Assembly (NCBI GenBank): GCA_022574255.1
Contig: JACZSK010000002.1
Location: 11,199 to 75,198, forward strand
Direction of reading: 5' to 3'
DNA: 64,000 bases
Origin: Pseudomonadota bacterium
Lineage (GTDB): Bacteria; Pseudomonadota; Alphaproteobacteria; Sphingomonadales; SMXR01
Part shown: in pieces, positions 7,361-34,428 of the stretch
Layout of the letters: every line of letters begins with the position of its first letter
How positions within the stretch are numbered: the first letter of the stretch is position 1
Translations under genes and position numbers: made by a program
Notes under the pieces: model-generated
Database searches by the model: none
Seen by the model: only the letters and a program-made list of their open reading frames with translations
Told to the model about the DNA's origin: nothing

Positions 7361-7370
7361 GGCGACCTGA

Positions 7371-8585
<1,215 letters not shown>

Positions 8586-8609
8586 GGGAGGTTAGTTCTT
8601 GCCCGGTGG

Positions 8610-9398: not shown

Positions 9399-9439
9399 TC
9401 TTTAAATTCCTGAGATTGCAGATACATACTGGGAATTTC

Positions 9440-10851: not shown

Positions 10852-10864
10852 AGGTTTTTTCTCC

Positions 10865-11728: not shown

Positions 11729-11739
11729 TTTCTTTTTTT

Positions 11740-12873
11740 TCAGCTCCTCACAACCTGTCCCGGGTTCTCGTTCCTCCGCCCGCCCCAGATTCTCGAGGGT
11801 AAACAGGCGTTGCCTCTAAAAATCATCCGTGCCGTTCTCAGCAGTCCGGCCTTTTCAACGACGGGCAGGGTGCCGCTCTCATTGACGACCAGCGTCACTG
11901 TGAATTCGCCGGAGGGGTGTTCTACCGACAAGGTTTTCTCCCGGCCTTCAGCAACGACGGCCGTGCCATCAGCCACTGAACCCGGCAACACACAAGCGGT
12001 AGCCACGCTCACCGCGCCCAGCACGCCTACTGCGGCGTGGCAGGTATGCGGGATGAAGGTGCGCGTGGTGACAGCACCGCCATTGCGGGGAGGCGCAATC
12101 AGACACATTTTCGGCACTACTTTTTCTGTGATGTCGCCCAGATTCATCATTGGCCCGGCCTTCTGCCGGATAGCTTCCAAGCGGATTTTTAATTCGTTAT
12201 CTGCATTCAGTTCATCCCGGCTTTCATAGCCGGTCCGGCCGAGATCCCTGGCCCGCATCACCACAACCGGCATGCCGTTGTCGATGCAGGTGACGGGGAT
12301 GCCCTCGATTTCATCCTGCAGGTTCCCGGTCGGCAGCAGCGCCCCGCAGGCCGAACCTGCGGTATCAATAAAATTACAGGCGATCGGCGCTGACGTGCCC
12401 GGAACGCCGTCAATCTGCACATCACCATCATAATTGACCAGCCCGCCAGACGTCTGCACCACCAGCTCAGCCAAATTCCCGCTATTCACCATATGTATCC
12501 GGACCACCGTCTCGCCGTCTGTGGCGTTGACCAGGCCGGTCTCAATCGCAAAGGGGGCAACGCCCGCCAGGATATTACCGCAGTTGGGTGTGTCATCCAC
12601 CCATCCTTCGCCGACGACGATCTGGAGGAATAAATAATCGACGTCGGCATCATCTCTGGCCGACGGACCAACCACGGCGGCTTTGCTGGTCAGCGGGTCG
12701 GCACCCCCAAGACCGTCAATCTGGCGCAGGTCCGCGCCGCCCATAATTGCCAGAACGACAGCCTTTCGCTCGTCGGGGTCAGCCGGCAGGTCAGAGGCCA
12801 GAAAATAAACCCCTTTCGAGCTGCCGCCGCGCATCAGTGCGCAGGGAATTGCAGTTTGGATACCACCCGACAT
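11740..12873 (-). CDS. galD: 4-oxalomesaconate tautomerase (PrpF family; GalD/LigU-like)
   Basis: Contains IPCALMRGGSSKGVYF...NCGNILAGVAPFAIE, a PrpF-family signature. Start chosen at the ATG at 12873 (MSGGIQTAIPC), which has GGGGA 6 nt upstream. The ORF could extend to 12933. Confidence 0.75.
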   Translation of the reverse strand: MSGGIQTAIPCALMRGGSSKGVYFLASDLPADPDERKAVVLAIMGGADLRQIDGLGGADPLTSKAAVVGPSARDDADVDYLFLQIVVGEGWVDDTPNCGNILAGVAPFAIETGLVNATDGETVVRIHMVNSGNLAELVVQTSGGLVNYDGDVQIDGVPGTSAPIACNFIDTAGSACGALLPTGNLQDEIEGIPVTCIDNGMPVVVMRARDLGRTGYESRDELNADNELKIRLEAIRQKAGPMMNLGDITEKVVPKMCLIAPPRNGGAVTTRTFIPHTCHAAVGVLGAVSVATACVLPGSVADGTAVVAEGREKTLSVEHPSGEFTVTLVVNESGTLPVVEKAGLLRTARMIFRGNACLPSRIWGGRRNENPGQVVRS

Positions 12874-12940
12874 CGAGTTTCCCCACCATTCAACGGTTTT
12901 GGGCATATGTAGTGAGATATTCTGTTGCGCCACAAGCTAG

Positions 12941-12955
12941 AACCGGTCTCCGGTT
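12941..12955. promoter_or_regulatory. 6-3-6 palindrome AACCGG-TCT-CCGGTT in the divergent galD / ligAB promoter region
   Basis: Read directly from the sequence. It lies between the galD start (12873) and the ligA start (13116). Confidence 0.3.
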
Positions 12956-13115
12956 GACGCCAATTCTTTTTTCTCCGCAGGCCATGGGAAAATCTGGAAT
13001 TGACCCTGGCGGATACGATTTCTCATCATCTCTCGATCAATTGGGACTTGCCGGTGTCCCGCGCCATTCTATGATGCTGATCTCGCTCGAAAACCATCGG
13101 AAGCACAAGTGGATA

Positions 13116-14349
<1,234 letters not shown>

Positions 14350-14363
14350 CAAGGGTCATATCC

Positions 14364-15314
14364 ATGAAGGTTATTCTCGCAGGTGCCGGCGCATTTGGGA
14401 AAAAACACCTGGACGGCATCCGGAATATCGATGGCGTGGAAGTTGTTTCGCTGGTTGGCAGGCGGCTCGCGCCGACACAGGCAGTGGCGGAGGAATACGG
14501 GATCGGTCATGTGACGACGGATCTGGCCGAAGCGCTGGATCAACCCGGCGTTGGGGCGGCGATCCTGTGCACTCCAACCCAAATGCATGCGGCACAGGCC
14601 ATCCAGTGCATGAGGGTCGGCAAACATGTGCAGATCGAGATTCCCCTGGCTGACAACTGGGAGGATGCGCAAGAAGTGGTTCGGGTACAGAAGGAAACCG
14701 GATTGGTTTGCATGGCTGGTCATACCCGTCGCTTCAACCCCTCCCATCAATGGGTGCACAGCCGTATCAGCCAGGGCGAGCTCAGCGTTCAGCAAATGGA
14801 TGTACAGACCTATTTTTTTCGCCGCAAAAACATCAACGCCGCTGGTGAGCCGCGCAGTTGGACGGATCATCTCTTGTGGCACCATGCGGCGCATACAATC
14901 GATTTGTTTCAGTATCAAACCGGCGAGGAAGTGGTGGTCGCCCACGCCGTACAAGGCCCCCTGCATCCGGATCTGGGCATCGCCCTGGACATGTCAATTC
15001 AGCTGAAAACCACATCGGGCAAAATTTGTACGCTGTCATTGTCATTCAATAATGATGGGCCACTGGGCACAGTCTTCCGTTATATCTGCGATAATGGAAC
15101 CTATATCGCCCGTTATGACGATCTGGTTGATGGCCGGGAAAAACCGGTCGACGTCTCAAAAGTGGACGTCTCGATGAACGGGATTGAATTGCAGGATCGC
15201 GAATTTTTTGCGGCGATTGCCGGCGGCCGCGAGCCGAACTCGAGCGTGGCCATGGTGTTACCCTGTTACAAGACGATCTTTGATCTTGAGCAGTGCCTGA
15301 AGAGCCAGGGCTAG
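14364..15314 (+). CDS. ligC: 4-carboxy-2-hydroxymuconate-6-semialdehyde dehydrogenase (Gfo/Idh/MocA family)
   Basis: MKVILAGAGAFGKKHLDGI... is a Rossmann start of the Gfo/Idh/MocA family. The gene lies directly after ligAB. Confidence 0.8.
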   Translation: MKVILAGAGAFGKKHLDGIRNIDGVEVVSLVGRRLAPTQAVAEEYGIGHVTTDLAEALDQPGVGAAILCTPTQMHAAQAIQCMRVGKHVQIEIPLADNWEDAQEVVRVQKETGLVCMAGHTRRFNPSHQWVHSRISQGELSVQQMDVQTYFFRRKNINAAGEPRSWTDHLLWHHAAHTIDLFQYQTGEEVVVAHAVQGPLHPDLGIALDMSIQLKTTSGKICTLSLSFNNDGPLGTVFRYICDNGTYIARYDDLVDGREKPVDVSKVDVSMNGIELQDREFFAAIAGGREPNSSVAMVLPCYKTIFDLEQCLKSQG

Positions 15315-16970: not shown

Positions 16971-17340
16971 AAATGATCAGATTGCCCATTACATTCAAAT
17001 TACTACCCGCTTGGGACTGCGCGCCATGAAAAAATTTCGCCGATGGATCAATTCTCATCCTCTGTTGATGTGTACATTTTCTCATGTACGTTTAATCCCA
17101 AAGCAGAAACTGAGGCGCACAGAATATCTATAACTATTTATAATTATGAAGTTTTTTTATAACGCTAACGAATCCGATAATTATGTTTCACCCGATGACC
17201 CATATACCTGTTATATTTTCTCATAATAGTGAGTGAGATTTACCGGTGGAAACCGGTGCGGCGGGTTATGGAAACAGGGAGTCGTTGTGGGGATGGCGAA
17301 CCGGCAAGCCGGGACAGTCGGCGAAATTGATATCCGAAAA

Positions 17341-18561
17341 ATGAGCTTGAGACATTTTAAGGCGGCGCTCCGCGTTGCCGAGTGCGAAAACGTAACCCGG
17401 GCCGCGGAGAGCCTTGGCCGGTCGCAAACGGCAGTTACCAAAGCGGTGAGTGATCTGGAGCGTCAACTGGGGGTGCGGCTATTCGACCGCTCGGCCAAGG
17501 GGATGATGCCGACAAGCTATGGCAAGGCGCTGGCGCGGCGCATCAATACGGTCAGAAGCGAGTTCCAGAAGGCCGCGCGCGCGCACCTGCGTTTTACGGA
17601 AAATCCGGCCCAATTTGCCCACAACCCCATTTTTTCCATGGATATCAGCCTCAAGCGCTTGTCCGCATTCGTCGCGCTTTTCGATCATGAAGAGGTAGGC
17701 AAGGCAGCAAATTCGGTCGGGCTCAGCACTTCCGCCATATATAGCTCGGTGCGTGAAATGGAGGGATACCTTGGCCTGGCCCTGTTCGAGCGGGCGCCTT
17801 CGGGTGTTTGCGCGACGGACTATGGCCGAATTCTGGCGACCCATGTGAAAATGGCTTTTGCAGAAATCCGGCATGCGCTGGACGACATTGCCAGCCTGCA
17901 GGGCGTTACGCGCGGTGGCGTTGCTATTGGCACACTGCCGCTGTCGCGCTCTGTTATCGTCCCGCGGGCGATTAACCGTCTCCTGAGCGAGCATCCACAA
18001 CTGGATATTTTTACCAGGGACGGGCCATACGATGTTCTTGAGGTGGCACTGAGAAGCGGAGACCTCGACTTTATCCTTGGCGCGTTACGTCCCAAGGAAA
18101 CGATGGCCGACCTGGATACCGAGCCACTATTTGAACTCCGGCTGTCGGTCATTGCTCGCAAGGGACACCCCCTGTCGCGCAAGAAAAAGCTGTCAGTCGC
18201 TGATCTGGATCCTTTGTGCTGGGTTTTGCCGCCCAAGAATACGCCATCGCGCATATTGTTCGACGGGGTGATGGCCGAAGCCGGGATCGACACGCCGGCC
18301 CATTGCATCGAAACCAGCTCACTGGCCACGATTCGAGGCCTGCTGATGGATAGCGACCGGGTGGCCTTGCTGTCCCGGCATCAGATCCATTATGACGAGG
18401 AATACGGGCTCTTGGCGCGGCTGCCGATTGACCTCGACCAAACCTACCGCCCGATAGGCATAACCATGCGCGCCCGGTCGACCCTGTCACCGGCGGCGCA
18501 GCTTTTCCTGGATCATATTCGCGTTGTTGCCAGAGAAACAATGAATGGCGCCGGACGCTAG
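17341..18561 (+). CDS. LysR-type transcriptional regulator with two tandem N-terminal HTH domains
   Basis: HTH 1: MSLRHFKAALRVAECENVTRAAESLGRSQTAVTKAVSDLERQLGVRLFDRS. HTH 2: LKRLSAFVALFDHEEVGKAANSVGLSTSAIYSSVREMEGYLGLALFERA. One LysR substrate-binding domain follows. Alternative starts at 17293 and 17233. Confidence 0.75.
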   Translation: MSLRHFKAALRVAECENVTRAAESLGRSQTAVTKAVSDLERQLGVRLFDRSAKGMMPTSYGKALARRINTVRSEFQKAARAHLRFTENPAQFAHNPIFSMDISLKRLSAFVALFDHEEVGKAANSVGLSTSAIYSSVREMEGYLGLALFERAPSGVCATDYGRILATHVKMAFAEIRHALDDIASLQGVTRGGVAIGTLPLSRSVIVPRAINRLLSEHPQLDIFTRDGPYDVLEVALRSGDLDFILGALRPKETMADLDTEPLFELRLSVIARKGHPLSRKKKLSVADLDPLCWVLPPKNTPSRILFDGVMAEAGIDTPAHCIETSSLATIRGLLMDSDRVALLSRHQIHYDEEYGLLARLPIDLDQTYRPIGITMRARSTLSPAAQLFLDHIRVVARETMNGAGR

Positions 18562-18707: not shown

Positions 18708-19826
18708 GTGACAAAAAAAGAAGTGCCCTTTCGCGCAGACCATGTGGGGAGTTATTTGCGACCGGTGAGGTTGGCTGAGGCCCGTCAACGGTACGCCGAT
18801 GGAAACTGCGACAAAGCCGAATTGCGCGGCATTGAAGACGAATGCATCCGGGAAGTCGTCCGCAATCAGGAAAATGCAGGCCTTAAGGGCATTACCGACG
18901 GTGAGTTTCGTCGCACCTATTTTCATATCGACTTTCTTGAGCGACTTAGTGGTGTCGAGGTCACCTACGGCGAGTTTTCCACGGCCTTCCGCAGGGACGA
19001 CGGTTCGGAAGTCGGTTTCAAGCCGCCGACGATGCATATTACCGACAAGATCAGGCATATGGGCTCAATCCAGGGTGAAGATTTTGATTTTCTCAAATCC
19101 GAAGTTGCCCAGACACCCAAGGTTTGTATTCCGGCACCGTCGATGCTGCATTTCAGGGGCGGGCGTGAGGCAATCTCAAAAGCGGCCTACCCGGACCTCG
19201 AGGAGTTTTTCGAGGATCTGTGTGCGGCCTACAGGGAAGAGATCAACGGGCTGGCCGAACGCGGCTGCCGTTATCTACAGATGGATGACACTAACCTGGC
19301 CTACCTGTGCGATCCCGCTATTCGCCAAAGCACTATTGATCGGGGCGATGATCCTGACGAGCTGGTCCATCTCTATTGCCGGATGGTGAACGAAGCCATC
19401 AGGGACCGCCCTGAAAATATGACTGTTACCGTACATCTGTGCCGCGGAAATTTCAAAAGCGCATGGGTCGCTCAAGGGGGCTATGAGCCGGTCGCCGAGA
19501 TACTGTTCAATGAGATGATGATCGACGGCTTCTTCCTTGAATATGACGACGAAAGATCGGGGGATTTTGCACCGCTCCGATTCATGCCGAAAGACAAGAC
19601 CGTCGTGCTTGGGTTGATGAGTTCAAAGTTTCCCAGGGCCGAAGACAAGGAAGAACTGATCAGACGCATAGAGGAGGCCTCTCAATTTGTGCCGCTGGAG
19701 CAATGTGCCCTGAGCCATCAATGTGGTTTTTCATCTACGGCCCATGGCAATGAAATCAGCGAAGACGATCAGTGGCGAAAGCTGGCGCGCTGTGTGGAAA
19801 CGGCAGGGGAGGTTTGGGGTTTTTGA
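18708..19826 (+). CDS. Cobalamin-independent methionine synthase (MetE C-terminal domain)-like family protein
   Basis: 372 aa starting (GTG)TKKEVPFRADHVGSYLRPVRLAEAR...GEFRRTYFHIDF..., typical of the short MetE-like family. Confidence 0.7.
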   Translation: MTKKEVPFRADHVGSYLRPVRLAEARQRYADGNCDKAELRGIEDECIREVVRNQENAGLKGITDGEFRRTYFHIDFLERLSGVEVTYGEFSTAFRRDDGSEVGFKPPTMHITDKIRHMGSIQGEDFDFLKSEVAQTPKVCIPAPSMLHFRGGREAISKAAYPDLEEFFEDLCAAYREEINGLAERGCRYLQMDDTNLAYLCDPAIRQSTIDRGDDPDELVHLYCRMVNEAIRDRPENMTVTVHLCRGNFKSAWVAQGGYEPVAEILFNEMMIDGFFLEYDDERSGDFAPLRFMPKDKTVVLGLMSSKFPRAEDKEELIRRIEEASQFVPLEQCALSHQCGFSSTAHGNEISEDDQWRKLARCVETAGEVWGF

Positions 19827-20903: not shown

Positions 20904-21359
20904 TCATGCGACGGCAATTTTTCCCAGAATCCGGAACAGTTCGGTGCGTTCCGCCGCCGAGAGCGAAGCAAGTGTTTCCTCGTTGGCTTCCTCGGACGGG
21001 CGCAGGCCCGTTTCAAGCAGTGCCCGGCCCTGGCTGGTCAGGCTGACCAGTAACTGGCGTCGGTCCGCATCGTTGCTTTCGGTCCTGACCAGGCCCCGTT
21101 TCAGCAAGCGGCGGACAAGCCCATGAATATTGGCCGGCTCCATGTCGACCAGCCTGCCAAGCTGGTTCTGGGAGACAGCCCCGTATTCCGCCAGTCGCGC
21201 GAGCGTTGCAAATTGCTGAGCGGTCAGGTCCAGCTTGGCAATATGCCTGTGAAGATTAGCCGTTGCCCGCTGATGGGCCCGCCGAAGCATGTGTCCGGCG
21301 TGGTCCTCGATATGGAATATGTTGCCGAATTCTGCGCCGGAGCGGGTCTCAGTCGACAT
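20904..21359 (-). CDS. MarR family transcriptional regulator
   Basis: 151 aa with a winged-HTH MarR pattern (LTAQQFATLARLAEYGAVSQNQLGRLVDMEPANIHGLVRRLLKRGLV). Its start overlaps the stop of the nitroreductase gene by 11 nt. Confidence 0.85.
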   Translation of the reverse strand: MSTETRSGAEFGNIFHIEDHAGHMLRRAHQRATANLHRHIAKLDLTAQQFATLARLAEYGAVSQNQLGRLVDMEPANIHGLVRRLLKRGLVRTESNDADRRQLLVSLTSQGRALLETGLRPSEEANEETLASLSAAERTELFRILGKIAVA

Positions 21360-22116
21360 TATCGGCGTCCCTGTACATCACCTTGTGGCGTTTTTCGCGG
21401 ATCCAGGTTTCCAGTTCTTCGTCGGTTATGAAGTTATCGGGGTTAAACACATCCCAGTTCATGATTTCGCCGAGTTCTTTTTTCCATCGCTTGTAGGGCG
21501 GCTTCAGCGGCGGGCCGAAACAAAAAATATCCAGCACCGACAGCTCGTCGGGAATGCCCAGCAGCGGCTTCATCGCCTCCTGCGCCTTCTGCTGGCCGAT
21601 GGCGGTTACCCACCAAACGTTATAGCCCAGCGCGGTGGCGGCCAGATGCGCGGACATGGTTGAGGCCGCGACGCTCTGCAGCAGGATCCGTTCGGCGTTT
21701 TCCTTGTACATCCGGTTGAGATCCGATTCGTCGTCTTTCAACACCGGGAAGGCGCTGACATAGCGAAAGTCTGAGGCTACGACGATCAGCCCGGGCGCGG
21801 TCGCCAATCCGGCATAATTTGGCGTCGGGAACTTCATCTTCTTCTTCGCCCTGAAACGCGCTTCTGCGACAAAATAATCAGCAATCTGCCTTTTGACCGC
21901 CGGATCGCGGACGATGATGTAATGCCACGGCTGGGCATTGGCGCCCGACGGGCCGTGTCTTGCCGCCTCCAGGATCAGTTCGAAATGCTCTTCGGGGACC
22001 TGGAAATCAGGATCGAATTGCCGGGTCGTGATACGGTTTCTGACGACCGACATCAGGTTGTCGTATAATTCGCGCCTGCCCAGTGCGGGGGCGTCAATTG
22101 CTTCAGTTTCGGACAT
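21349..22116 (-). CDS. Nitroreductase-superfamily flavoprotein
   Basis: NRITTRQFD...EAARHGPSGANAQPWHYIIV is a nitroreductase-fold signature; 255 aa. It lies 15 nt downstream of the rdhA-like gene. Confidence 0.75.
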   Translation of the reverse strand: MSETEAIDAPALGRRELYDNLMSVVRNRITTRQFDPDFQVPEEHFELILEAARHGPSGANAQPWHYIIVRDPAVKRQIADYFVAEARFRAKKKMKFPTPNYAGLATAPGLIVVASDFRYVSAFPVLKDDESDLNRMYKENAERILLQSVAASTMSAHLAATALGYNVWWVTAIGQQKAQEAMKPLLGIPDELSVLDIFCFGPPLKPPYKRWKKELGEIMNWDVFNPDNFITDEELETWIREKRHKVMYRDADNVD

Positions 22117-22131
22117 GGTTTACCTCTCCTG

Positions 22132-23484
22132 TCAGGGCGCGTTTTTCGGGCTGTTTTCCGGCCTCGTCGCCTCCGCGCCCTTTCTCAGCGCTTCCTTGCG
22201 ATCCACCGGAAAGCATTCCTCAAAATCACCGGGGGGCAGATCTTCGGCGGGATAAATGGCGGTCTTCTGACTTTCCGGGTTGGGCTTGCCGGGCGAGATA
22301 TCGCGCCTGTTCACGCCCTTCTCGGGCAGGATGATCCTGCCGTCGGGTGCGTATTCATGGTCCAGCCACCATTTCTGGCCCTTCACCCGCTTGCCGTTGC
22401 CCAGCACATCGTCCAGCCATACAGCGACCGGGATAAGAACAGGCTTCAGCCACATGGCATTTATACCCAGCCAACTGGCGATGCGAGTAACCAGTGGCCC
22501 GTCTTCTGTGACCACCTTGTTCAGCGGGCAGGTTTTCATGCAGCGCCCACAGGCCGAGCCTTTCTGGTTGGTGATCCGGTATTTGGCGCAATTCTCAACG
22601 TCCGGCTTCCAAATCTCGTAGCCGTTGAACATGATCTTGTCGCCGAAGGAAATGGCGTTGCAGGGGCATTCTCGGGCGCATTTATGGCAATTCCCACAAA
22701 ACTGCTGCAGGCCGAAATCGATCGGCTTGTCACATTCCATCGGCAAATTCGTGGTCACGATGCAAACCTTGGAGCGGGGTCCGATAAAGGGATTGAGCAC
22801 CAGTTCGCCGATGCGGCTGAGTTCTCCCAAGCCGGCCAGCAGCATTAGTGGAATTTGCAGGACTTCGCCATCGGCAGCGGAATGGCACCGCGCCTCATAG
22901 CCCAGCCGGCGGATATAGTTGGCCATGACCGAGCCGACCTCGGCCCCACGCAAGTAAGCGCGATAGCTCTGGGTACCGGAAATCCAGTCGTCACCCGATG
23001 CCCCCTCCATGGTGGCAAAACCCTGGTCGATGACCATGACAATGGCGTATTTGTGCCGAGGTTCAATCTCGTTGCCCTCGATATCGTGGGAATACCAGGC
23101 ATATTCGGGCACTTCGCAAATGCCGACGATGTCCATGTCCAGAAAATAGGCCAGTGATTTAAGGTGCCTGGCCATTTCCTGCGGATCGTCGGTGCCGGGC
23201 GCTATCTCCGGCGCCACATCGCCGTCCTGCATCGGCACGATGACCTTCATCAGGTCTTCCATGGCCGCCGCCAGCGGATATTTGTTAATGAAGCGGGGCC
23301 GCTCCGCCTGGGCCCGCTCGCCCAGATCACCATAAAAAGGACGGCGGAAAAACGAGCCCCGGATCGGCACCCTCGGCACCTTTTCAGCGTCGATCCGGGT
23401 CGTCGGCTGATCAACCCGCTTCACGGTTTCCATCGGGTATTTGCCCAGATGCGGCGCGCGGTGCTTATAGCGAAACAGGCCCAT
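22132..23484 (-). CDS. Reductive dehalogenase (RdhA) family protein, non-respiratory type (no Tat signal, no RdhB partner)
   Basis: Two Fe-S motifs in the RdhA arrangement: CGNCHKCARECPCNAI, then CAKYRITNQKGSACGRCMKTCP (C-X12-C-X2-C-X3-CP). The upstream blocks DMDIVGICEVPEYAWYSHD and KYAIVMVIDQ resemble RdhA/QueG-superfamily cores. Start set at MGLFRYKH (GAGGA 5 nt upstream); the ORF could extend to 23496 or 23538. Confidence 0.6.
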   Translation of the reverse strand: MGLFRYKHRAPHLGKYPMETVKRVDQPTTRIDAEKVPRVPIRGSFFRRPFYGDLGERAQAERPRFINKYPLAAAMEDLMKVIVPMQDGDVAPEIAPGTDDPQEMARHLKSLAYFLDMDIVGICEVPEYAWYSHDIEGNEIEPRHKYAIVMVIDQGFATMEGASGDDWISGTQSYRAYLRGAEVGSVMANYIRRLGYEARCHSAADGEVLQIPLMLLAGLGELSRIGELVLNPFIGPRSKVCIVTTNLPMECDKPIDFGLQQFCGNCHKCARECPCNAISFGDKIMFNGYEIWKPDVENCAKYRITNQKGSACGRCMKTCPLNKVVTEDGPLVTRIASWLGINAMWLKPVLIPVAVWLDDVLGNGKRVKGQKWWLDHEYAPDGRIILPEKGVNRRDISPGKPNPESQKTAIYPAEDLPPGDFEECFPVDRKEALRKGAEATRPENSPKNAP

Positions 23485-23558
23485 CTTCATCCTCATTTTG
23501 TCTGCAAGCACTGGTGACCCGAACGGCAGCAGGAACAACCGGGGTTACGGCGACTCAA

Positions 23559-23584
23559 TTAATTGTTATCATAATAACAATTAA
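23559..23584. promoter_or_regulatory. Perfect inverted repeat TTAATTGTTAT-cata-ATAACAATTAA; candidate operator (MarR?) in an AT-rich promoter region upstream of the rdhA-like gene
   Basis: Read directly: 23559-23569 is the exact reverse complement of 23574-23584. It lies 75-100 nt upstream of the proposed rdhA-like start, in the only AT-rich stretch of the 95-bp intergenic gap. Confidence 0.5.
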
Positions 23585-23633: not shown

Positions 23634-24866
23634 TCAGGCTGCCGTTCGCTCAGGCTTGGCGGCGAGACCGTATATTTCGGTCCCGGGATGAAAATCGGAC
23701 CAGACGTACCAGAATATCTTGTTGTAATGGGGTACGGCTGCAAGGCGCTGGCCCTTTCGCGCGCCCTTGATGCATTCGCCAGTGGCCGACCATTCGGATT
23801 CGGACTGGTCATCGACAAACCCGCCACCGTTGGCGGCCTGGGTGAAGCTCAGAACCTCACCATCGACCGACCGGTCGAAGACCTGCACATAATCGCCGCC
23901 AAAGTCCGAGGAGACGAGAATCGCCGTATCGCCAAGTTCGTCATTGATGACGGGCTGCTCTTCAAGCGTGGGCAGGGTGTATGTGCGAGTGTCGTCGCCC
24001 ACCTGGACGCCGATCACCATCGACTTCATCGACAACCGGTTGTCCTGATCGTGCTGAAGCGGATAAATCATCACCGGGCTGGCGGGGTCGATCACGTCGG
24101 CGCGGGCCAGCAATTTCAGGTAAAAAACGTCGCGCCATTCTATATTTCGCATCCAGACCGGTGATTCCGGATACAGCGCCTGCCAGGTACTGAGTTTTAC
24201 CGCAACGGTTGGCACCGTCTGCAACTGCAGGTTTTCGTTGCGCGACTGGTTATGCATCTGGATTATCGAGCATTTGTTGGTCTTTTCGTAAAAAACCATA
24301 TTGTTGGCGAGCGCCGCGGTAATGGCGATGTCCGGCTGGCGAAACTTGTCTGCCATGGCGTAGGACATTGAGCTGTGCGCCAGGATGCAGTGGGTCATGA
24401 TAAAGGGTGCGTCGCCGTCGGGCTGGTAGACGATGTGGGGGCGCCGCGCCAGGCGCGAGATGAAGGCCCAGGGTCGGCCCGCGCCGTCGATCACGCCAAC
24501 CACTTCTTCATCGGGGCCGAATTTATCAATCGCCTCATCGAGTGATATGAATTGGGGCTTCTTAATGGGCCGGAACAGCAGCTTGGTATGCATGAAGAAA
24601 CCGAAGGTGAGGACACCCGCATAGGCCGTGATCGCGCCCAGCGTTACTAGGGAGAGGCTGGCTATCGGCCCCGCCTGATATATCGCCGCCGCCATAACGG
24701 CTGCTGAAGCAACGCCCAGCCACATCGCCTTGCCATAAATATACCGGGCGCCAGAATCGCTGGCAGCGATCTGATTTGTATACATTAAAATTCCCAGCGT
24801 GCCGGGCAGCACTGCCAACGCACACATCAAGACCGCCGCACCCGCCAGCCATTCTGCTCCAGTCAT
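23634..24866 (-). CDS. Membrane-anchored DUF3179-like protein
   Basis: About 3-4 N-terminal hydrophobic helices, followed by a soluble domain that resembles my recollection of DUF3179 (PFIMTHCILAHSSMSY..., ...IFWYVWSDFHPGTEIY). Confidence 0.5.
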   Translation of the reverse strand: MTGAEWLAGAAVLMCALAVLPGTLGILMYTNQIAASDSGARYIYGKAMWLGVASAAVMAAAIYQAGPIASLSLVTLGAITAYAGVLTFGFFMHTKLLFRPIKKPQFISLDEAIDKFGPDEEVVGVIDGAGRPWAFISRLARRPHIVYQPDGDAPFIMTHCILAHSSMSYAMADKFRQPDIAITAALANNMVFYEKTNKCSIIQMHNQSRNENLQLQTVPTVAVKLSTWQALYPESPVWMRNIEWRDVFYLKLLARADVIDPASPVMIYPLQHDQDNRLSMKSMVIGVQVGDDTRTYTLPTLEEQPVINDELGDTAILVSSDFGGDYVQVFDRSVDGEVLSFTQAANGGGFVDDQSESEWSATGECIKGARKGQRLAAVPHYNKIFWYVWSDFHPGTEIYGLAAKPERTAA

Positions 24867-24884: not shown

Positions 24885-25442
24885 CTAGTTCGATGTTTCT
24901 TCCTTCGCCAGGTCCGCCGCCGCGTTGTTGATTGCGGCAACAGCGGCCTTTACCCAATCCGTTTTCCCAACCCCCTGGGCGGCAAAGTAGGTTCCGATAT
25001 TGGCAAGTGCCACTTGTGCCGCGTCGGAGGACTGTGAATTCATTAGCTCCATTGCACCTGCCGCACCCACGAGCAGCCGCTGTTTCACTCTCTCGGCGGC
25101 CAGCTCGCAGCGTTTTATGGCGTCATAAACAAAACCCGAGCCCGGTGTGTCCGCCGTCAACGCTTTCAATTTTCTGCGCAAGCATCGGATGGGCTTTACA
25201 GCGCCTTCCCGCCAGTCACCGGTGGCTTCCAGCAGGCCGCGGACATCCTCTGTGCTCAGAGATCTTGCTGCGCGAAATCCCATCCAGTAGCAAAACAGCA
25301 TAACGTTGACATCAACCCCGGCCTCATCCTGCAGCCGGAGGCAGTTTTCGCCGACACCGGGCCGACCATAAAGCCTGACCGAATAGCGCCAGAAATCATC
25401 GGCGAGAATATCCTGTTGGTCAGGTTTGGCGGATGCAGACAT
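24885..25442 (-). CDS. DUF2390 / TIGR02444-family protein
   Basis: DFWRYSVRLYGRPGVGENCLRLQDEAGVDVNVMLFCYWMG...IRCLRRKLK matches the remembered DUF2390 pattern. Start set at MSASAKPDQQ; the ORF could extend to 25517. Confidence 0.55.
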   Translation of the reverse strand: MSASAKPDQQDILADDFWRYSVRLYGRPGVGENCLRLQDEAGVDVNVMLFCYWMGFRAARSLSTEDVRGLLEATGDWREGAVKPIRCLRRKLKALTADTPGSGFVYDAIKRCELAAERVKQRLLVGAAGAMELMNSQSSDAAQVALANIGTYFAAQGVGKTDWVKAAVAAINNAAADLAKEETSN

Positions 25443-26907
25443 TCTTGATCTCGGTAAAAAATTCGAGCGCATATTCGCCACCCTCGCGGCCGACACCAGA
25501 TTGCTTGAACCCGCCAAAAGGAGATTTCAGGTCGCGGACAAGCCAACAGTTCACCCAGATCACGCCCGCCTCTATTTTGGAAGCGACGCGGCTTGCCCTG
25601 TCCGCGTCCCCGCTCCAAACCATTGCCGCCAGACCGTACTTGGTGGCGTTTGCCAGGCGCACCACTTCCTCCTCGGTATCGAAGGGCGCCACATGGCTGC
25701 AGGGTCCGAATATTTCCTCTTTAACGGTTCGCGAGTCTTCGGCCAGGCCCGTCCAAATGGTCGGCTGCACCCAGGCGCCCCCGGACAGCTCGGCGTCCAT
25801 ATCCGGAACGCCGCCGCCGGTCACCACCGTGGCACCCTCATTCGCGGCAATCTGGTAATGCTCCAGGACTTTCTCCCGGTGTTCGAGGCTGCTCAGCGGC
25901 CCCAGAGTCGTGGCCGGATCGTTGGGGTCGCCTAAGCGCAAAGCTTCGGCCTTGTCTTTTAGGGCGGCGACGAATTTCTCGAAGATAGGCCGCTCGACGT
26001 ATAAGCGTTCCATGCACAGACATATCTGGCCGCAATTAAAGAAACTGGCGATTGCAGCGCTGGCGACCGCGGCTTCGAAATCGCAATCGGCAAAAATTAT
26101 GCCGGGATTCTTGCCGCCAAGCTCCAGCGACAGTCCCTTCACCGTGCCAGCCGCTGCCCGCATGATCGCTACGCCGGTTTGCGTCTCACCGGTAAAGGTA
26201 ATCCCGTCCACATCCGGGTGGGTGGTCAGATATTCGCCTGCCGAGCCTGGGCCAAATCCATGGACGACGTTATAGACCCCTGCCGGTACGCCGGCGTCGT
26301 TCATCACCTCGGCCAGCAGCGTGGCCGTCATCGGCGTTTCCTCAGACGGCTTGACAATGATTGTGTTGCCAGTGGCCAGCGCCGGCGCCACTTTCCACGA
26401 CATCTGAACGAATGGAATATTCCACGGACAGATCGCGGCAATAACGCCGCGCGGGCTGCGTTCTGGCCGGTTGATCGCGGTGCCGCCATCGGGCAGGAGG
26501 GTGGTGATCTCCGGCAGGGGTTCTACATTGCGGAACATATCCGCAAAGAGTTTAAACTGCTGGGCCGCCCTCGGAATTTCCATTTTAAGGGTGGGCATCC
26601 GGGGTTTCCCGGTATCGAGGACTTCGGCGGCAACGAATTCATCCAGCCGTGCCATGATTCCGTCCGCCACTTTCTCCAACAGCGCCAGCCGCTCATTCTG
26701 CGAAAAATTGCCCCAGTCGCCCTCAAACGCCGCCCGCGCCGCCTTGACGGCCGCATCCACATCAGCCTCGGATGCCTCGTGAACAATCCCCACAACTTCG
26801 TTTGTCGCCGGGTACCGGTTCTCGAAGGTCTTGCCATCGGAGCCCTCTGCGAAGGCGCCATTTATGAAATTGCGCGCCTGGCGAAGATTTCCCTGTTCCA
26901 ATGTCAT
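25420..26907 (-). CDS. NAD(P)-dependent aldehyde dehydrogenase, hydroxymuconic-semialdehyde dehydrogenase-like (XylG/HpaE-like)
   Basis: 495 aa with ELGGKNP, the catalytic FFNCGQICLC, and a C-terminal VWVNCWLVRDLKSPFGGFKQSGVGREGG block typical of this subfamily. Confidence 0.85.
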   Translation of the reverse strand: MTLEQGNLRQARNFINGAFAEGSDGKTFENRYPATNEVVGIVHEASEADVDAAVKAARAAFEGDWGNFSQNERLALLEKVADGIMARLDEFVAAEVLDTGKPRMPTLKMEIPRAAQQFKLFADMFRNVEPLPEITTLLPDGGTAINRPERSPRGVIAAICPWNIPFVQMSWKVAPALATGNTIIVKPSEETPMTATLLAEVMNDAGVPAGVYNVVHGFGPGSAGEYLTTHPDVDGITFTGETQTGVAIMRAAAGTVKGLSLELGGKNPGIIFADCDFEAAVASAAIASFFNCGQICLCMERLYVERPIFEKFVAALKDKAEALRLGDPNDPATTLGPLSSLEHREKVLEHYQIAANEGATVVTGGGVPDMDAELSGGAWVQPTIWTGLAEDSRTVKEEIFGPCSHVAPFDTEEEVVRLANATKYGLAAMVWSGDADRASRVASKIEAGVIWVNCWLVRDLKSPFGGFKQSGVGREGGEYALEFFTEIKNVCIRQT

Positions 26908-28325: not shown

Positions 28326-29840
28326 ATGGGTTCCCACAGCTTTCGTGATTTCATTGAGAAGTTGGAGAAGGAAGGTAATCTGCTGCGGATCACGCCGGAG
28401 GTCGATACTCTGGATGTGATAGGGGCGCTCATCGCGCGCGCCGATTACGAGCATGTAAACAAGGGTCTCTTGTTTGAGAACCCCAAGGGATATGACATCC
28501 CGGTTTTCGCCAATACAATAGGCGCCACCTATGACCGGATTGCCAAGAGCTTTGGCGTCCCGTTGGAGCAGGCGGTACCGGGGGCGTCCCAAAGAATGAT
28601 GGAGGTCATGCAGTCAGGCGGTGTTCCTCCGGTTTTTGTTGAGAACGAGAAAGCGCCCTGCAAGGAAGTGATCTTCACCGGCGACGATATTGATCTCGGG
28701 GCGATTCCAATTCTCAGAATGAACCCCAAGGACGGAACCAAGACCAAGGCCTTTCAGGAGGGCCGCTTTATTTGTGCCGTTGCCGTCTCCAAGCCCGCCG
28801 AAGACGCCTACAACCTCTCTTACCATCGCTTTGAAATTACCGGGAAGGACAAGGGGTCGGTATGGATTTTCCGGGGCACCGGCGACGCCAAGAGTATGGA
28901 GGAGCATTGGGGCGCCAAGATCGATGATCCGTCATCGACGTGGGATCATGACAATGCGCGGCCTTTCCCAATGGCCTATATCATCGGCAGCAGCCCGGAA
29001 ATGATTCTGGCCGGCGCCAACTCGGCTCTGCCTTACAAAAACGATGATTTTGCTTTCGTCGGCGGCCTCACGGGCGAACCGGTGAAATTGGTAAAATGCG
29101 AAACTATCGATGTGGACGTGCCTGCAGACGCAGAAATCGTTATCGAAGGCGTGTTCAAACCCTTCGATTGGGCCATACAGGGGCGCTTCGCCTCATTTAA
29201 CGGTTTTTATGACGATGCGCGCCGCCGCCCCACTTTCCAGGTAACCGCCATTACCATGCGAAAGAAACCGATCTACCAGCATGTTCATATCGGTCGCCCG
29301 CTGAACGAGACCAATAATATTGCCGCTTTTTTCCGTTCGGTGAAGGTATACCAGGATCTGATCAAGGTTTTGCCAAACGTTCGGGACGTCTTTGTCGACC
29401 CGGCCGCCGGCTGCGGTTTCACCGTTCACGTGTCGATCGACAAGAAGCGCGTTGGCGAAGCCAAGATGGCGATGATGCGCGCCTATACGGCGCTGCAAGG
29501 GTTCTGCAAACACGTGTTTGTTTACGATGAAGATATTGATATCCGGAACCCGCACGAACGCGACTGGGCATTGGCCCATCGTTTTATGGCGGACCGGGAT
29601 CTGCTGGTTATTCCCAACGTCCTGGGGATGGCAATCGACCCTCTGGCTCAGGCTCATGCCGGCGCGACAGCGAAGCTGGGTGTACACGACGGGAATTTGG
29701 CCATCCCGATCAACACGCGCAGTTTCATGGGGTTGGATTGCACTGTTCCGCTGGGCCTGAAAGTTATGGATCGCGTTTTGCCGGTCGAGGAGGTGGAGGC
29801 GCGGGTCGACCAGATATGGAATCAGATCGACGCCCGATAG
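28326..29840 (+). CDS. UbiD-family (prenyl-FMN-dependent) aromatic acid decarboxylase
   Basis: 504 aa starting MGSHSFRDFIEKLEKEGNLLRITPEVDTLDVIGALIARA, a typical UbiD N-terminus. ubiX lies in the divergent operon. Confidence 0.85.
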   Translation: MGSHSFRDFIEKLEKEGNLLRITPEVDTLDVIGALIARADYEHVNKGLLFENPKGYDIPVFANTIGATYDRIAKSFGVPLEQAVPGASQRMMEVMQSGGVPPVFVENEKAPCKEVIFTGDDIDLGAIPILRMNPKDGTKTKAFQEGRFICAVAVSKPAEDAYNLSYHRFEITGKDKGSVWIFRGTGDAKSMEEHWGAKIDDPSSTWDHDNARPFPMAYIIGSSPEMILAGANSALPYKNDDFAFVGGLTGEPVKLVKCETIDVDVPADAEIVIEGVFKPFDWAIQGRFASFNGFYDDARRRPTFQVTAITMRKKPIYQHVHIGRPLNETNNIAAFFRSVKVYQDLIKVLPNVRDVFVDPAAGCGFTVHVSIDKKRVGEAKMAMMRAYTALQGFCKHVFVYDEDIDIRNPHERDWALAHRFMADRDLLVIPNVLGMAIDPLAQAHAGATAKLGVHDGNLAIPINTRSFMGLDCTVPLGLKVMDRVLPVEEVEARVDQIWNQIDAR

Positions 29841-31968: not shown

Positions 31969-34428
31969 TCAGAAAACGTACCCGATCCTGAACCCCCACT
32001 GGCGTGGTGGCTGATAGGTCGTCAGATCGACACCGAGAGCCAGGAAGGGTATTGAAATCAGGATATCCCCGATCTGGTCTTCGTTGGTGGCGTTGGTCAC
32101 AAAGCCCTCCAGATAAATTTGTTCACTGGCGCTTTCCCAGCGCAGACGGAGGTCCAGATTAGAGTAGGAATCTCCCTGCGCATCCAGCCCGTTATCAACA
32201 TCGAAGAACTGGCTGCCCTGATAATGGAAGTCTGCCCGGAAGGTTACGCTGCCCATCTCTTCAGACAGATCGAACCTTTTTTGCGCGCCAATCGACAAGG
32301 TCAGCTTCGGTGAGCGGCTCAACCTGTTGCCCGCAAAATTGGTTGGCGGCGGTCCCAGAACGCCCGGCCCCGAAGGTGCCCGCGGATTGGTCGGATCAAC
32401 CAGGAAGGGGAACAGCGGAAGCTTTGGCGGCGAGAAGGGAAAATCGTCAAACTGCGCGTCCAGCAATCCCAGTGAGAAATTGATCTCCATCGATTCGCTC
32501 AGCAACACAAGTCCCTCGACTTCAATGCCCTTGATCGTTGCCGAGGCCGCGTTCACGATCTCGGCGCCGGTGGAACCGAAGGTCTGAACCTGGATATCCT
32601 TATAATCGTTGTAAAAGGCAGCGAAGTTTAGCTGGATGCGATCATTGAACTGCGTTTTGACACCGATCTCGAAGACGTCGTTGGTTTCGGGATTATATAC
32701 CGCGGTTGCCGGGTTGCCGTTCAGGTTGATGCCGCCCGACTTGTAGCCCCGTGAATATGACCCGTAGAGCAGCAAATCGTCCTTCGGCCGCCAATCGATT
32801 GAAATCTTGCCCGAGGGCTCGTTCCACTTATCGCCAACTGGCGCATTATCGATGATCGTAGCCTTGTCAAACGACGGGAATGGGCTCAGCAGGCTGATTA
32901 TAGCGTCCTTCTCGTCCCAGCTCCAGCGACCGCCGACAGTGACCTGTAATGCATCAGTCAGGTCGTAGGATGCCTGGGAGAAAACTGCATAGGACGTCGC
33001 CTCAACGCTGCCGCCGACTTTGAAGCCGGCATCCCGGCCCAGCAACGCGCCGAACAGATCGAAATCAGAGTTAAAGATGGTCGAGATACGGGTCGCGTCC
33101 TCGGTAAAGAAATAGGCTCCGACAATCCACTCCAAAGCCCCGCCGCTCGCCGAGGCCAGTTGGAACTCCTGCGAGAACTGATCCTGGGTTTCGTCCAGCT
33201 GGATGTCCATGATCGGTGCGTCCGAACCATCAAGGTCGATGAAGTTGAAGAAAGATGTTTCACCGTAGGACGTGATCGATTTGAACGTGACGTTATCCAG
33301 GTCCCAGGTCAGCGTCGCGTTGATATTCAGGAAATCCTGTTTCACCGATTCCGGTGTGTCCTTGGACACCCGGTTGGGCACCAGATCGTTCAATGAAGCA
33401 TCCGATGGCTTGGGTCCCGCCGGGAATACGGTAAAGCCGAAGAAATTCTCGATATCGGCGATGCTGTTGATACCCTGGGCCGCCAGAATGGCGTTGATAT
33501 CGGGACGATTGAAAAAGGCGTCGCTGAAAATCGTCTGCAGGTAAAAGTTGGGCACGCCGGCAAAATCCCTGAAACCAGGGGGCAGGGGCGGGAAGGAATC
33601 GGTCGCCGTTCGGAAGGGCAGGCGCAGTTCGTGGGTGGATCCGACGCCGTTGACCTCGGCATAGGTTGCTCCAACCGTCAGCTCGATATTTTCAGCCGGG
33701 TTGAAGCGCACGGCGCCACGCAGGGTTATCGTATCCGAATCGTTTGCATTGGTACCACTGGCGATCAAGTTGCGCTGGTAGCCGTCGCTGTCTTCAAATG
33801 ACGCGCTGAACCGGGCTGCAGCTTTCTCGCCCATCGGTACATTCAATGTGCCACGGGCCTGGAAATGCTGGAAGCGGCCGTATCCCGCTTCAAACTTGCC
33901 CTCGTATTCATCGGTAGGCTTCTTGGTGATGAAATTAATCGAGCCGCCGGTCGTATTGCGCCCATACAGGGTACCCTGTGGTCCGCGAAGCACCTCCATG
34001 CGCTCCAGGTCCCAAAAGTTAAAAACGCTGGCAACCGGGCGGCCGATGTAAACGCCGTCCAGGTGAATCGCGACGCCGGGGTCGCCGCCGGCCGTCGTAT
34101 TGGTGTGGCCAATGCCGCGGATTGCCACCGTCGCTGAGCTGGTGAAATTGCCGAATTGCAGGTTCGGGACATAGTTCATCAGATCGTCCACACTCTCGAT
34201 CTGACTTCGCTCCAGCCTGCTGGCATCAAACGCGGTGATGGCGATCGGCACGTCCTGAACGCTTTCAGTCCGCTTCTGGGCGGTTACCAGAATTTCCTCT
34301 ATTTCCTGCGCCGCTACCGCTTTGGCCAAACCGAGTGTGCCGCCGCAGAGCGCCATCCCCAGTATGAGGTGTGACGTTCTTCCAATAAGAGTTGACTTTC
34401 GCTTTGTGCTCACCGTCGTCCTCCCCAA
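31969..34428 (-). CDS. TonB-dependent outer-membrane receptor (TBDR 1)
   Basis: 819 aa with a signal peptide, a plug region (EEILVTAQKRTESVQDVPIAITA) and a C-terminal ...RQWGFRIGYVF beta-barrel terminus. Confidence 0.9.
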   Translation of the reverse strand: MGRTTVSTKRKSTLIGRTSHLILGMALCGGTLGLAKAVAAQEIEEILVTAQKRTESVQDVPIAITAFDASRLERSQIESVDDLMNYVPNLQFGNFTSSATVAIRGIGHTNTTAGGDPGVAIHLDGVYIGRPVASVFNFWDLERMEVLRGPQGTLYGRNTTGGSINFITKKPTDEYEGKFEAGYGRFQHFQARGTLNVPMGEKAAARFSASFEDSDGYQRNLIASGTNANDSDTITLRGAVRFNPAENIELTVGATYAEVNGVGSTHELRLPFRTATDSFPPLPPGFRDFAGVPNFYLQTIFSDAFFNRPDINAILAAQGINSIADIENFFGFTVFPAGPKPSDASLNDLVPNRVSKDTPESVKQDFLNINATLTWDLDNVTFKSITSYGETSFFNFIDLDGSDAPIMDIQLDETQDQFSQEFQLASASGGALEWIVGAYFFTEDATRISTIFNSDFDLFGALLGRDAGFKVGGSVEATSYAVFSQASYDLTDALQVTVGGRWSWDEKDAIISLLSPFPSFDKATIIDNAPVGDKWNEPSGKISIDWRPKDDLLLYGSYSRGYKSGGINLNGNPATAVYNPETNDVFEIGVKTQFNDRIQLNFAAFYNDYKDIQVQTFGSTGAEIVNAASATIKGIEVEGLVLLSESMEINFSLGLLDAQFDDFPFSPPKLPLFPFLVDPTNPRAPSGPGVLGPPPTNFAGNRLSRSPKLTLSIGAQKRFDLSEEMGSVTFRADFHYQGSQFFDVDNGLDAQGDSYSNLDLRLRWESASEQIYLEGFVTNATNEDQIGDILISIPFLALGVDLTTYQPPRQWGFRIGYVF

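Follow-up and report, generated by a model that had tools for sequence, protein, structure and literature searches.

The minus-strand stretch at positions 20904-23584 of the window studied here (64,000 nucleotides of contig JACZSK010000002.1, from the metagenome-assembled genome (MAG) of an uncultured Pseudomonadota bacterium) consists of three closely packed open reading frames (ORFs), encoding a reductive dehalogenase-like protein (RdhA), a nitroreductase-fold flavoprotein and a MarR-family regulator. From family models, alignments and a structure model we have high confidence that this RdhA is a reductive dehalogenase of the NpRdhA/BhbA catabolic clade. We read the three genes as one transcription unit, situated in an aerobic hydroxybenzoate/protocatechuate catabolic island. 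The nitroreductase, judging from its homologues, appears to be a recent recruit of this lineage and an unmodified member of a widespread family of FMN oxidoreductases, and we tentatively favour an accessory role for it over that of a dedicated protein partner docking on RdhA. The RdhA is a known enzyme class in a minimal architecture, and the nitroreductase operon is a narrow-lineage variant of uncertain meaning.

Gene layout of the rdhA locus

The rdhA-like frame is open over 22132-23538, beginning from a TTG. Its start was placed at the third ATG (23484) because a GAGGA ribosome-binding site (RBS) precedes it and the starts of two diverged relatives align there; in one of these two relatives an in-frame TAA lies directly upstream of the start. 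The rdhA stop and the nitroreductase start are 15 nt apart, the RBS of the nitroreductase being AGGAGAGG, and the nitroreductase stop and the marR start overlap by 11 nt (ATGTCGACTGA). The same order and the same 15-nt gap are found in the related loci L083 and L174, and it is because of this conservation, the short gap and the overlap that we read the genes as an operon.

The original prediction, made from the sequence alone, had described much of this arrangement correctly. The ORF of about 450 amino acids (aa) does carry the paired Fe-S motifs (C263-x2-C266-x2-C269-x3-C273-P and C299-x12-C312-x2-C315-x3-C319-P), the nitroreductase gene does begin 15 nt downstream with its stop overlapping the marR start, and the lack of both a Tat signal and an adjacent membrane-anchor gene was confirmed. 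No twin-arginine leader was found when the RdhA N-terminus was read directly, and the sole RR pair (residues 47-48) belongs to FFRR, a conserved segment of the active site that aligns with NpRdhA F290/F291 and is not followed by a hydrophobic h-region. No small rdhB-like ORF adjoins rdhA, its neighbours being the nitroreductase and a DUF3179 protein. The aerobic-type catabolic setting and the co-transcription of marR are likewise supported. What did not hold was the idea that the missing Tat signal and rdhB are an oddity, as their absence is the norm for the characterised catabolic (cytosolic) RdhA class, with NpRdhA, BhbA and JtRdhA (PMC10463259).

RdhA as a catabolic reductive dehalogenase

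The comparison of reductive dehalogenase and QueG models in NCBIfam favoured RdhA, with 163.2 bits for TIGR02486 (cutoff 160.35) against 26.7 bits for the QueG equivalog TIGR00276 (cutoff 200). In a search against the Protein Data Bank (PDB) the match to NpRdhA had E = 3e-167 and 560 bits, compared to 89 bits for PceA; query residues 26-460 of the rdhA ORF align only to NpRdhA 253-686, and there is a second, weak match to the N-terminal half of NpRdhA. The closest entry in the protein collections was 93% identical. The AlphaFold (AF2) model of RdhA, with a predicted local distance difference test score (pLDDT) of 79, has a TM-score (TMq) of 0.87 to NpRdhA (6ZXU/4RAS, root-mean-square deviation about 2.5 A), 0.45-0.52 to PceA and ~0.3 to QueG. 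To compare the residues, the NpRdhA sequence was recovered from its genome contig (L067) and aligned with the window RdhA and 27 single-domain homologues. The eight Fe-S cysteines align to NpRdhA C512-C568 and are invariant in the window RdhA and all 27 homologues, and equally invariant are S422, Y426, K488 and R552 of NpRdhA, which are S173, Y177, K239 and R303 in the window. These four are the crystallographically defined hydroxyl-binding and proton-donating residues of NpRdhA (PMC7565698). The hydrophobic pocket is partly altered, and the carboxylate-binding K307 of NpRdhA is replaced by Arg62. The ratio of nonsynonymous to synonymous divergence (dN/dS) of rdhA is 0.055-0.094.

It is because the dehalogenase model is above and the QueG model far below its cutoff, together with the NpRdhA match, the invariant catalytic and Fe-S residues and the TM-scores of the model, that we assign the protein to the RdhA family. 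The best homology is thus not to QueG, an outcome that the original prediction had named as decisive, and QueG identity was rejected on its 26.7 bits and its TM-score. Some points nevertheless weigh against the assignment. Like that of every single-domain member of the NpRdhA clade it is a prediction, made here from sequence and a structure model. The TIGR02486 cutoff was cleared narrowly, by 3 bits, and the pocket residues P311I, A419G, M423Y and N452A differ from NpRdhA, so the true substrate may differ as well. Neither cobalamin genes nor a cobalamin riboswitch or other Rfam family were found in the window, a tRNA being the one Rfam match, and cobalamin supply is not something that can be judged from the window alone. 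The narrow margin and the altered pocket residues, with the membership in a very large and mostly uncharacterised marine family, would also suit some other class-III cobalamin reductase that is not a dehalogenase, either QueG-like or acting on a non-halogenated substrate. We regard this as highly improbable, given the low QueG scores in both sequence and structure, the invariance of the halogen- and hydroxyl-handling residues Y426, K488, R552 and S422, and the 4-hydroxybenzoate pathway encoded alongside.

As a reductive dehalogenase, the cytoplasmic RdhA with cobalamin and two [4Fe-4S] clusters would work like NpRdhA; corrinoid binding and halide release are predicted from the fold similarity to cobalamin-bound NpRdhA. 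An ortho-halogenated phenolic acid would bind with its hydroxyl held by Ser173, Lys239 and Arg303 and its halogen on the cobalt, an electron would reach the cobalt site via the two Fe-S clusters, and Tyr177 would protonate the carbon. The gene context and the conserved hydroxyl triad point to 3-bromo- or 3,5-dibromo-4-hydroxybenzoate, or similar compounds, as the likely substrates. PobA, whose gene lies nearby, would then hydroxylate the product 4-hydroxybenzoate, and LigAB would carry out the cleavage.

Single-domain architecture

The window RdhA has neither the vestigial N-terminal domain nor a C-terminal reductase domain. In the alignment with NpRdhA, residue 1 of the window protein pairs with the residue that opens each repeat unit, and the two C-termini are no more than 4 residues apart; a flavin, NAD or 2Fe-2S domain was not found in the window protein. 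As there is no reductase domain, an external reductant would be needed. When the vestigial domain of NpRdhA was searched against the window, it matched residues 1-255 of RdhA alone (28% identity, E = 1e-27), and no detached remnant of that domain was found elsewhere in the 64 kb. The nitroreductase-fold protein was also considered as a detached vestigial domain and rejected (BLASTP against NpRdhA residues 1-252, E = 5.9).

The database homologues fall into about 29 clusters of 419-457 aa at 68-93% identity, followed by hundreds of two-domain proteins of about 730 aa at about 60% identity, and the 29 short forms were monophyletic in a neighbour-joining tree of 122 sequences. These comparisons place the window RdhA in a monophyletic clade of single-domain proteins of about 445 aa, which appears to be the nearest relative of the two-domain NpRdhA type. 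Single-domain cytosolic architecture has already been described in kind (PMC12219181); a published description of a Pseudomonadota single-domain clade beside NpRdhA was not found. A C-terminal reductase domain is present in most catabolic RdhAs, and according to Fisher et al. the vestigial N-domain mimics the dimer interface of PceA and keeps NpRdhA monomeric. Since the vestigial duplicate that makes NpRdhA a monomer is missing, the window RdhA probably homodimerises like the respiratory PceA. The single-domain group, without vestigial and without reductase domain, is the smallest working unit of the NpRdhA clade, and it lends itself to testing whether the vestigial domain does no more than replace the dimer partner.

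The hydrophobic stretch after the Fe-S region to which the original prediction had drawn attention does exist (residues 331-361), but it is not special to the window RdhA and does not substitute for an anchor. It is present in nearly all single-domain and most two-domain homologues, NpRdhA being the exception. A Lys and a Pro interrupt it, the Kyte-Doolittle mean over 19 residues reaches 1.55 at best, and in the AlphaFold model it forms a helix-kink-helix. A role as an RdhA-specific membrane anchor was rejected on the clade-wide occurrence, the two breaks and the hydropathy.

The nitroreductase and its linkage to rdhA

The second gene encodes a member of the nitroreductase superfamily, as had been proposed (PF00881, 90.5 bits against a gathering score of 23.5), and it falls below every NCBIfam equivalog cutoff, with 58 bits of 150 for BluB (TIGR02476), 46.4 of 227 for NfsB (NF008275), 21.7 of 223 for NfsA (NF008033) and 35 of 152 for the RutE-like model. 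BluB, NfsA and NfsB were ruled out since their curated models are this far below cutoff. Structures of iodotyrosine deiodinase (IYD) match weakly, at about 31-33 bits and over the N-terminal residues 27-94 only, leaving the substrate-lid region unaligned. In the AF2 model (pLDDT 82) the 50 PDB neighbours listed are all nitroreductase-superfamily or nitroreductase-like flavoproteins. There is no close solved relative; the closest PDB match is the uncharacterised 4DN2 from Geobacter (26% identity), and BluB (2ISJ) has 23% identity with a TMq of 0.61. The family is well conserved at 255 aa, with more than 120 clusters at at least 71% identity in Alpha- and Gammaproteobacteria, a conserved basic segment (E85-R87-R89-K93-K95-Y101) and a C-terminal extension of about 50 aa. 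We take the R-x-T-x-R stretch at the N-terminus and the PSGANxQPW motif to be FMN-binding signatures. Purifying selection is strong in this gene (dN/dS 0.054-0.070).

The gene neighbourhoods of rdhA homologues were surveyed in 80 genome and 80 metagenome loci and by individual look-ups, covering about 30 other single-domain and 135 two-domain loci. Outside the window's own contigs, the order DUF2390-DUF3179-rdhA-nitroreductase-marR was found in just two loci, L083, whose RdhA is 93% identical, and L174, whose nitroreductase is 89% identical. The nitroreductase gene is carried by none of the approximately 30 other single-domain loci (71-80% identity) and by none of the 135 two-domain loci, and among the surveyed loci no synteny of rdhA with nitroreductase or marR was seen outside the lineage of the window. 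In a more sensitive phmmer pass, 2 of about 165 loci had a distant nitroreductase-fold protein as neighbour and 5 had a MarR-like one, both near chance level by a rough estimate. At two loci with two-domain rdhA, L065 (8099-9619, a Burkholderiales MAG) and L137 (6133-6831, a metagenome contig), a nitroreductase of another subfamily (PF00881, 79 bits) lies 0.2-3 kb downstream.

Within the lineage the block has been stable. Among the window, L083 and L174, rdhA, nitroreductase and marR differ by a synonymous divergence (dS) of 0.6-1.5 and the DUF3179 gene by 0.2-0.5; dN/dS is 0.05-0.14. Across these three diverged lineages both the gene order and the 15-nt spacing have been kept. Nitroreductase homologues at 72-78% identity are found in unrelated settings, namely with a TonB receptor and a thiamine pyrophosphate (TPP) enzyme (twice), with a dimethylglycine-dehydrogenase-like gene, with an HpcH aldolase, and alone. 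The rdhA-linked nitroreductases are 73.6% identical to the unlinked ones, which are 72.3% identical among themselves, and one family-conserved residue is changed in the linked clade. Because the gene is absent from other rdhA loci, its homologues occur in unrelated operons and the linked clade has no added divergence, we read it as a generic recruit. The sole repeated context among the six nitroreductase-family contexts is that of TonB receptor, TPP enzyme and nitroreductase: in the two independent contigs L091 (2122-6768) and L177 (121-5768) the nitroreductase directly follows a 633-aa TPP-dependent enzyme, with a 791-aa TonB-dependent receptor alongside.

Possible roles of the nitroreductase

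As a pathway accessory, the nitroreductase would retain what is generic to its family, an NAD(P)H-dependent reduction of small molecules or flavins. It could keep halo-quinones or other electrophilic by-products of halophenol metabolism reduced, or it could supply reducing equivalents indirectly, for example with free flavin as a diffusible reductant. Nitroreductase-family quinone reductases such as tcpB sit in chlorophenol clusters, and in Bacillus, MarR-controlled nitroreductases respond to quinones. Against this tentative preference it must be said that an accessory small-molecule reductase is the default reading and a predicted role, that tight translational coupling kept over a long divergence would also fit a direct partnership with RdhA, and that no other reductase or ferredoxin gene was detectable in the 64 kb.

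The adjacency might also have no meaning for the pathway, the nitroreductase being a passenger or a general electrophile-stress gene under the same MarR; MarR-nitroreductase stress modules exist in other bacteria. The confinement of the linkage to one narrow clade, the position of the family at the 3' end of several unrelated operons and the lack of sequence specialisation in the linked clade are all in line with such a passenger. We consider it rather unlikely, however, as the block was kept with identical spacing over substantial synonymous divergence. Moreover, the unlinked homologues are not paired with MarR, and therefore the gene did not arrive as a MarR-nitroreductase module.

For the flavoprotein the original prediction had offered the role of a missing electron donor, of a second dehalogenase or of a cofactor enzyme. 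As a dedicated NAD(P)H electron donor of the minimal RdhA, its FMN would take a hydride and pass single electrons to the distal [4Fe-4S] cluster, in a two-component, ferredoxin-independent equivalent of the self-sufficient BhbA and JtRdhA. Such a donor would fit an RdhA without a reductase domain in a window where no ORF with a ferredoxin, 2Fe-2S or Rieske motif was found apart from RdhA, and also the persistence of spacing and order in three lineages at dS 0.6-1.5 under strong purifying selection. An FMN domain is also the entry point for electrons in the self-sufficient relatives, and for NpRdhA no physiological donor has yet been named (PMC10463259). The comparative data, in contrast, do not support it: the gene is missing from all other single-domain and two-domain loci surveyed, even its distant fold neighbours are there at roughly chance level, the family is widespread without rdhA, and no specialisation is seen in the sequences of the linked clade. 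Enzymes of the nitroreductase fold typically donate electrons strictly in pairs, with suppressed semiquinones, and the donor role needs one-electron chemistry that is unusual for the fold, with no 2Fe-2S mediator present. We therefore consider a dedicated donor unlikely.

An action on the cofactor, either as a BluB-type dimethylbenzimidazole (DMB) synthase or in a CblC-like removal of the upper ligand from scavenged cobalamin ahead of its loading into RdhA, is very doubtful. BluB is the top NCBIfam match, with a near full-length alignment, and is found among the structural neighbours; some homologues are auto-annotated as DMB synthase, and RdhA requires cobalamin without the upper ligand. Yet the BluB equivalog score is little more than a third of its cutoff, cobalamin genes are absent from the window (which has no cobalamin riboswitch either) and from the six homologue contexts, and MMACHC/CblC is not among the 50 structural matches listed. 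Least credible is a second, flavin-dependent reductive dehalogenase of the IYD type acting on mono-halogenated products, for although the fold is shared and IYD structures appear among the PDB sequence matches, these matches are weak and stop short of the IYD substrate lid, the 50 structural neighbours listed include no IYD structure, and the family contexts are unrelated to halogen chemistry.

MarR and a candidate operator

The regulator scores well above the cutoffs of both MarR domain models (PF12802, 46.2 bits against 27; PF01047, 43.2 bits against 24.6), and its nearest NCBIfam models, all below cutoff, are the aromatic-acid regulators Saro_0803, BagL/FevM and HpaR. In the 149-bp spacer, about 75-100 nt upstream of the rdhA start, lies a perfect 11+11 bp palindrome, TTAATTGTTAT-CATA-ATAACAATTAA, which overlaps a -10-like TATGAT hexamer and whose end coincides with the right-hand end of the stretch under study (23584). 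This palindrome occurs nowhere else in the window, 100 shuffles gave 0 matches, and its core GTTATNNNNATAAC likewise occurs once. A 14-bp core, GTTATTATGATAAC, which contains TATGAT, is invariant in the three diverged intergenic regions of the window, L083 and L174. Beyond this core the three spacers cannot be aligned by BLAST, and the coding DNA of the two relatives is only 81-85% identical. A scan of the minus strand for consensus promoters and terminators gave nothing above chance.

We take the palindrome as the operator of MarR because of its position and conservation. It is fairly likely, as far as can be judged from the sequence, that MarR autorepresses the operon through it: MarR would bind the conserved palindrome over the -10 region and a phenolic acid would release it. 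On the other side, position and conservation are what links MarR to this site, and a TetR and a LysR regulator are also encoded nearby.

Catabolic neighbourhood

The surrounding genes indicate that the locus serves the catabolism of halogenated 4-hydroxybenzoates (Table 1). On the marR-distal side there are genes for an aldo-keto reductase (AKR), a MetE-like protein, a PcaQ-like LysR, a 2-hydroxyacid dehydrogenase, a dienelactone hydrolase, a short-chain dehydrogenase/reductase (SDR), the PobA equivalog and a sodium:solute symporter, and the lig region has Pfam matches to RraA-like, PIG-L, Amidohydro_2, PrpF and GFO_IDH_MocA/OxRdtase_C. Upstream of rdhA, on the same strand, follow DUF3179, DUF2390, a 2-hydroxymuconic-semialdehyde dehydrogenase equivalog, UbiX and TetR, and a UbiD and an amidohydrolase gene are divergent from these upstream minus-strand genes. 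The gene set follows the logic known from the bromoxynil/BhbA pathway, where dehalogenation yields 4-hydroxybenzoate for PobA and protocatechuate 4,5-cleavage (PMC10463259).

The DUF3179 protein, encoded directly upstream of rdhA, has at its N-terminus, as read by eye from the translation, three hydrophobic segments that are likely transmembrane, and after them a flank of positive charge, because of which its soluble domain is probably cytoplasmic. The gene has the same position and orientation in L083 and L174 and is absent from all other rdhA loci. DUF3179 appears in reviews as an occasional selenoprotein family. Nothing useful was found in the literature on DUF3179 or on 4DN2.

In L083 (6396-6867) and L174 (6067-7779) the gene after marR is the SDR that in the window adjoins pobA and the symporter (6500-9423), so in both of them the rdhA block is immediately adjacent to the pobA region. 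Only in the window are the two separated, by a segment of about 11 kb with lig, LysR, MetE-like and AKR genes. Within this segment, the PcaQ-like LysR has two separate HTH_1 (PF00126) matches (about 39-97 and 140-200), which suggests a duplicated N-terminal DNA-binding domain or a mis-set start; the metagenome gene call is 422 aa. The short 'core' MetE-like gene beside it has relatives (37-53% identity) within 5 kb of rdhA homologues in L006 (320-1447), L043 (2048-3151) and L045 (1157-2248), and in Breoghania such a gene (L090 4341-5372) is two genes from a nitroreductase homologue. Core-MetE enzymes can use methylcobalamin, and a connection with B12 is conceivable.

An 87-kb metagenome scaffold from ENA is 99.5% identical to the window. 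Inside ubiD, this scaffold has about 100 bp (L081 1499-1600) against 474 bp in the window (28517-28990); the gene is an intact 504-aa ORF in the window and was called as a 279-aa fragment in the ENA scaffold. The discrepancy stems either from variation between strains or from the assembly.

Four paralogous genes resembling flavin-dependent halogenases (Trp_halogenase PF04820, 434-451 bits), putative halogenases by family match, are located 15-25 kb from rdhA and are interleaved with two genes for TonB-dependent receptors. A tyrosine integrase gene adjoins tRNA-Ser(GGA), which is followed by the housekeeping genes lepA and pheST, and a transposase gene of the IS6/IS240 family lies further inside the region. 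This tRNA may be the integration site of a genomic island comprising the catabolic and halogenase region.

Table 1. Coordinates of the features discussed, in positions of the 64-kb window.
Feature	Position	Strand	Description
rdhA	22132-23484	-	cytoplasmic catabolic reductive dehalogenase (predicted), 450 aa; single domain with corrinoid-binding core and two [4Fe-4S] motifs
nitroreductase gene	21349-22116	-	nitroreductase-superfamily FMN flavoprotein, 255 aa; widespread uncharacterised subfamily; ~50-aa C-terminal extension
marR	20904-21359	-	winged-helix regulator of the MarR family, 151 aa; translational coupling with the nitroreductase gene
palindrome	23559-23584	.	candidate MarR operator; perfect 11+11 bp
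DUF3179 gene	23634-24866	-	410 aa; PF11376 124 bits; directly upstream of rdhA
DUF2390/TIGR02444 gene	24885-25472	-	PF09523 96 bits; TIGR02444 88.8 bits, above cutoff; also in L083 and L174
pobA	7404-8585	+	4-hydroxybenzoate 3-monooxygenase; TIGR02360 equivalog 655.5 bits (cutoff 538.7)
ligAB	13071-14349	+	protocatechuate 4,5-dioxygenase; Pfam LigA and LigB; PRK13366 541 bits
other 4,5-cleavage genes	9440-15314		candidate LigK, PIG-L (possible GalB-like hydratase), LigI, LigU, LigC; names inferred from Pfam families
PcaQ-like LysR gene	17233-18561	+	two HTH_1 matches
core MetE-like gene	18708-19826	+	Meth_synt_2; PRK06520 452 bits
ubiD	28326-29840		504-aa ORF
TonB-dependent receptor gene	31969-34428	-	
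transposase gene	34750-35445	+	IS6/IS240 family
halogenase-like gene	37908-39644	+	putative, by family match
halogenase-like gene	39695-41248	+	putative, by family match
halogenase-like gene	41344-42897	+	putative, by family match
TonB-dependent receptor gene	43827-46952	-	
halogenase-like gene	47509-49125	-	putative, by family match
tyrosine integrase gene	54223-55440	-	adjoins tRNA-Ser(GGA)
tRNA-Ser(GGA)	55616-55705	-	

Implications

Catabolic RdhAs are the oxygen-tolerant, soluble members of the family and are relevant to bioremediation and to the marine halogen cycle. Reconstitution with the NpRdhA-linked ferredoxins failed, and no physiological donor has yet been named for catabolic RdhAs without a fused reductase (PMC10463259). 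The operon described here offers one concrete and cheaply testable donor candidate, although without comparative-genomic support. In case the nitroreductase and RdhA did work as a pair, this would be the first physiological donor for a catabolic RdhA without a fused reductase and an unprecedented electron-transfer pair from a nitroreductase fold to Fe-S clusters, with the corollary that the single-domain form would be the pre-duplication architecture, a homodimer like respiratory PceA. If the nitroreductase is irrelevant, the locus is just a further catabolic rdhA cassette next to a hydroxybenzoate pathway. No literature on rdhA, nitroreductase and MarR together was found.

Comparison with known systems

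The nearest characterised enzyme is NpRdhA of Nitratireductor pacificus pht-3B (PDB 4RAS, 6ZXU), to which the catalytic part of the window RdhA is 52% (global) to about 60% (local) identical. Both are cytoplasmic, and neither has a Tat signal, an rdhB or a fused reductase. NpRdhA has in addition a vestigial N-terminal duplicate of about 245 residues, in the literature a hallmark of catabolic RdhAs, which the window RdhA lacks. The pocket of the window enzyme differs in P311I, A419G, M423Y, N452A and K307R, and its helix pair after the Fe-S domain is 8 residues longer and more hydrophobic. The gene neighbours differ as well, being a ferredoxin reductase and two ferredoxins in NpRdhA (PMC10463259) and the nitroreductase and MarR in the window.

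The self-sufficient BhbA (Comamonas sp. 7D-2) and JtRdhA, compared here by description, share with the window RdhA the catabolic clade and its chemistry. BhbA likewise supplies 4-hydroxybenzoate to PobA and protocatechuate 4,5-cleavage (PMC10463259), and the same pathway is encoded in the window. The C-terminal PDOR-type reductase domain of this self-sufficient subclass is absent from the window RdhA.

The flavoprotein shares its fold with 4DN2, BluB, NfsA/NfsB and IYD, with at most 26% identity to any solved structure, and compared to them the basic segment and the C-terminal extension are its own.

In architecture the window RdhA resembles the simplified cytosolic RdhA-like proteins of Desulfobacterota and Chloroflexota (Microbiome 2025, PMC12219181), which are also cytosolic and single-domain, with no vestigial domain, Tat signal or rdhB. 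The likeness drawn here is one of architecture; the simplified type averages 395 aa and occurs in anaerobe-rich phyla, whereas the window clade is of about 445 aa and belongs to Pseudomonadota (Rhodospirillales and Sphingomonadales MAGs). MarR and IclR regulators near cytosolic rdhA genes have already been noted (PMC12219181). The respiratory PceA (4UQU; PceA2B2 8Q4H) is more distant, with 19-23% identity and a TMq of 0.45-0.52, and the window RdhA has neither its Tat leader nor its RdhB, but the two have in common a single cobalamin-binding core with a two-cluster ferredoxin domain.

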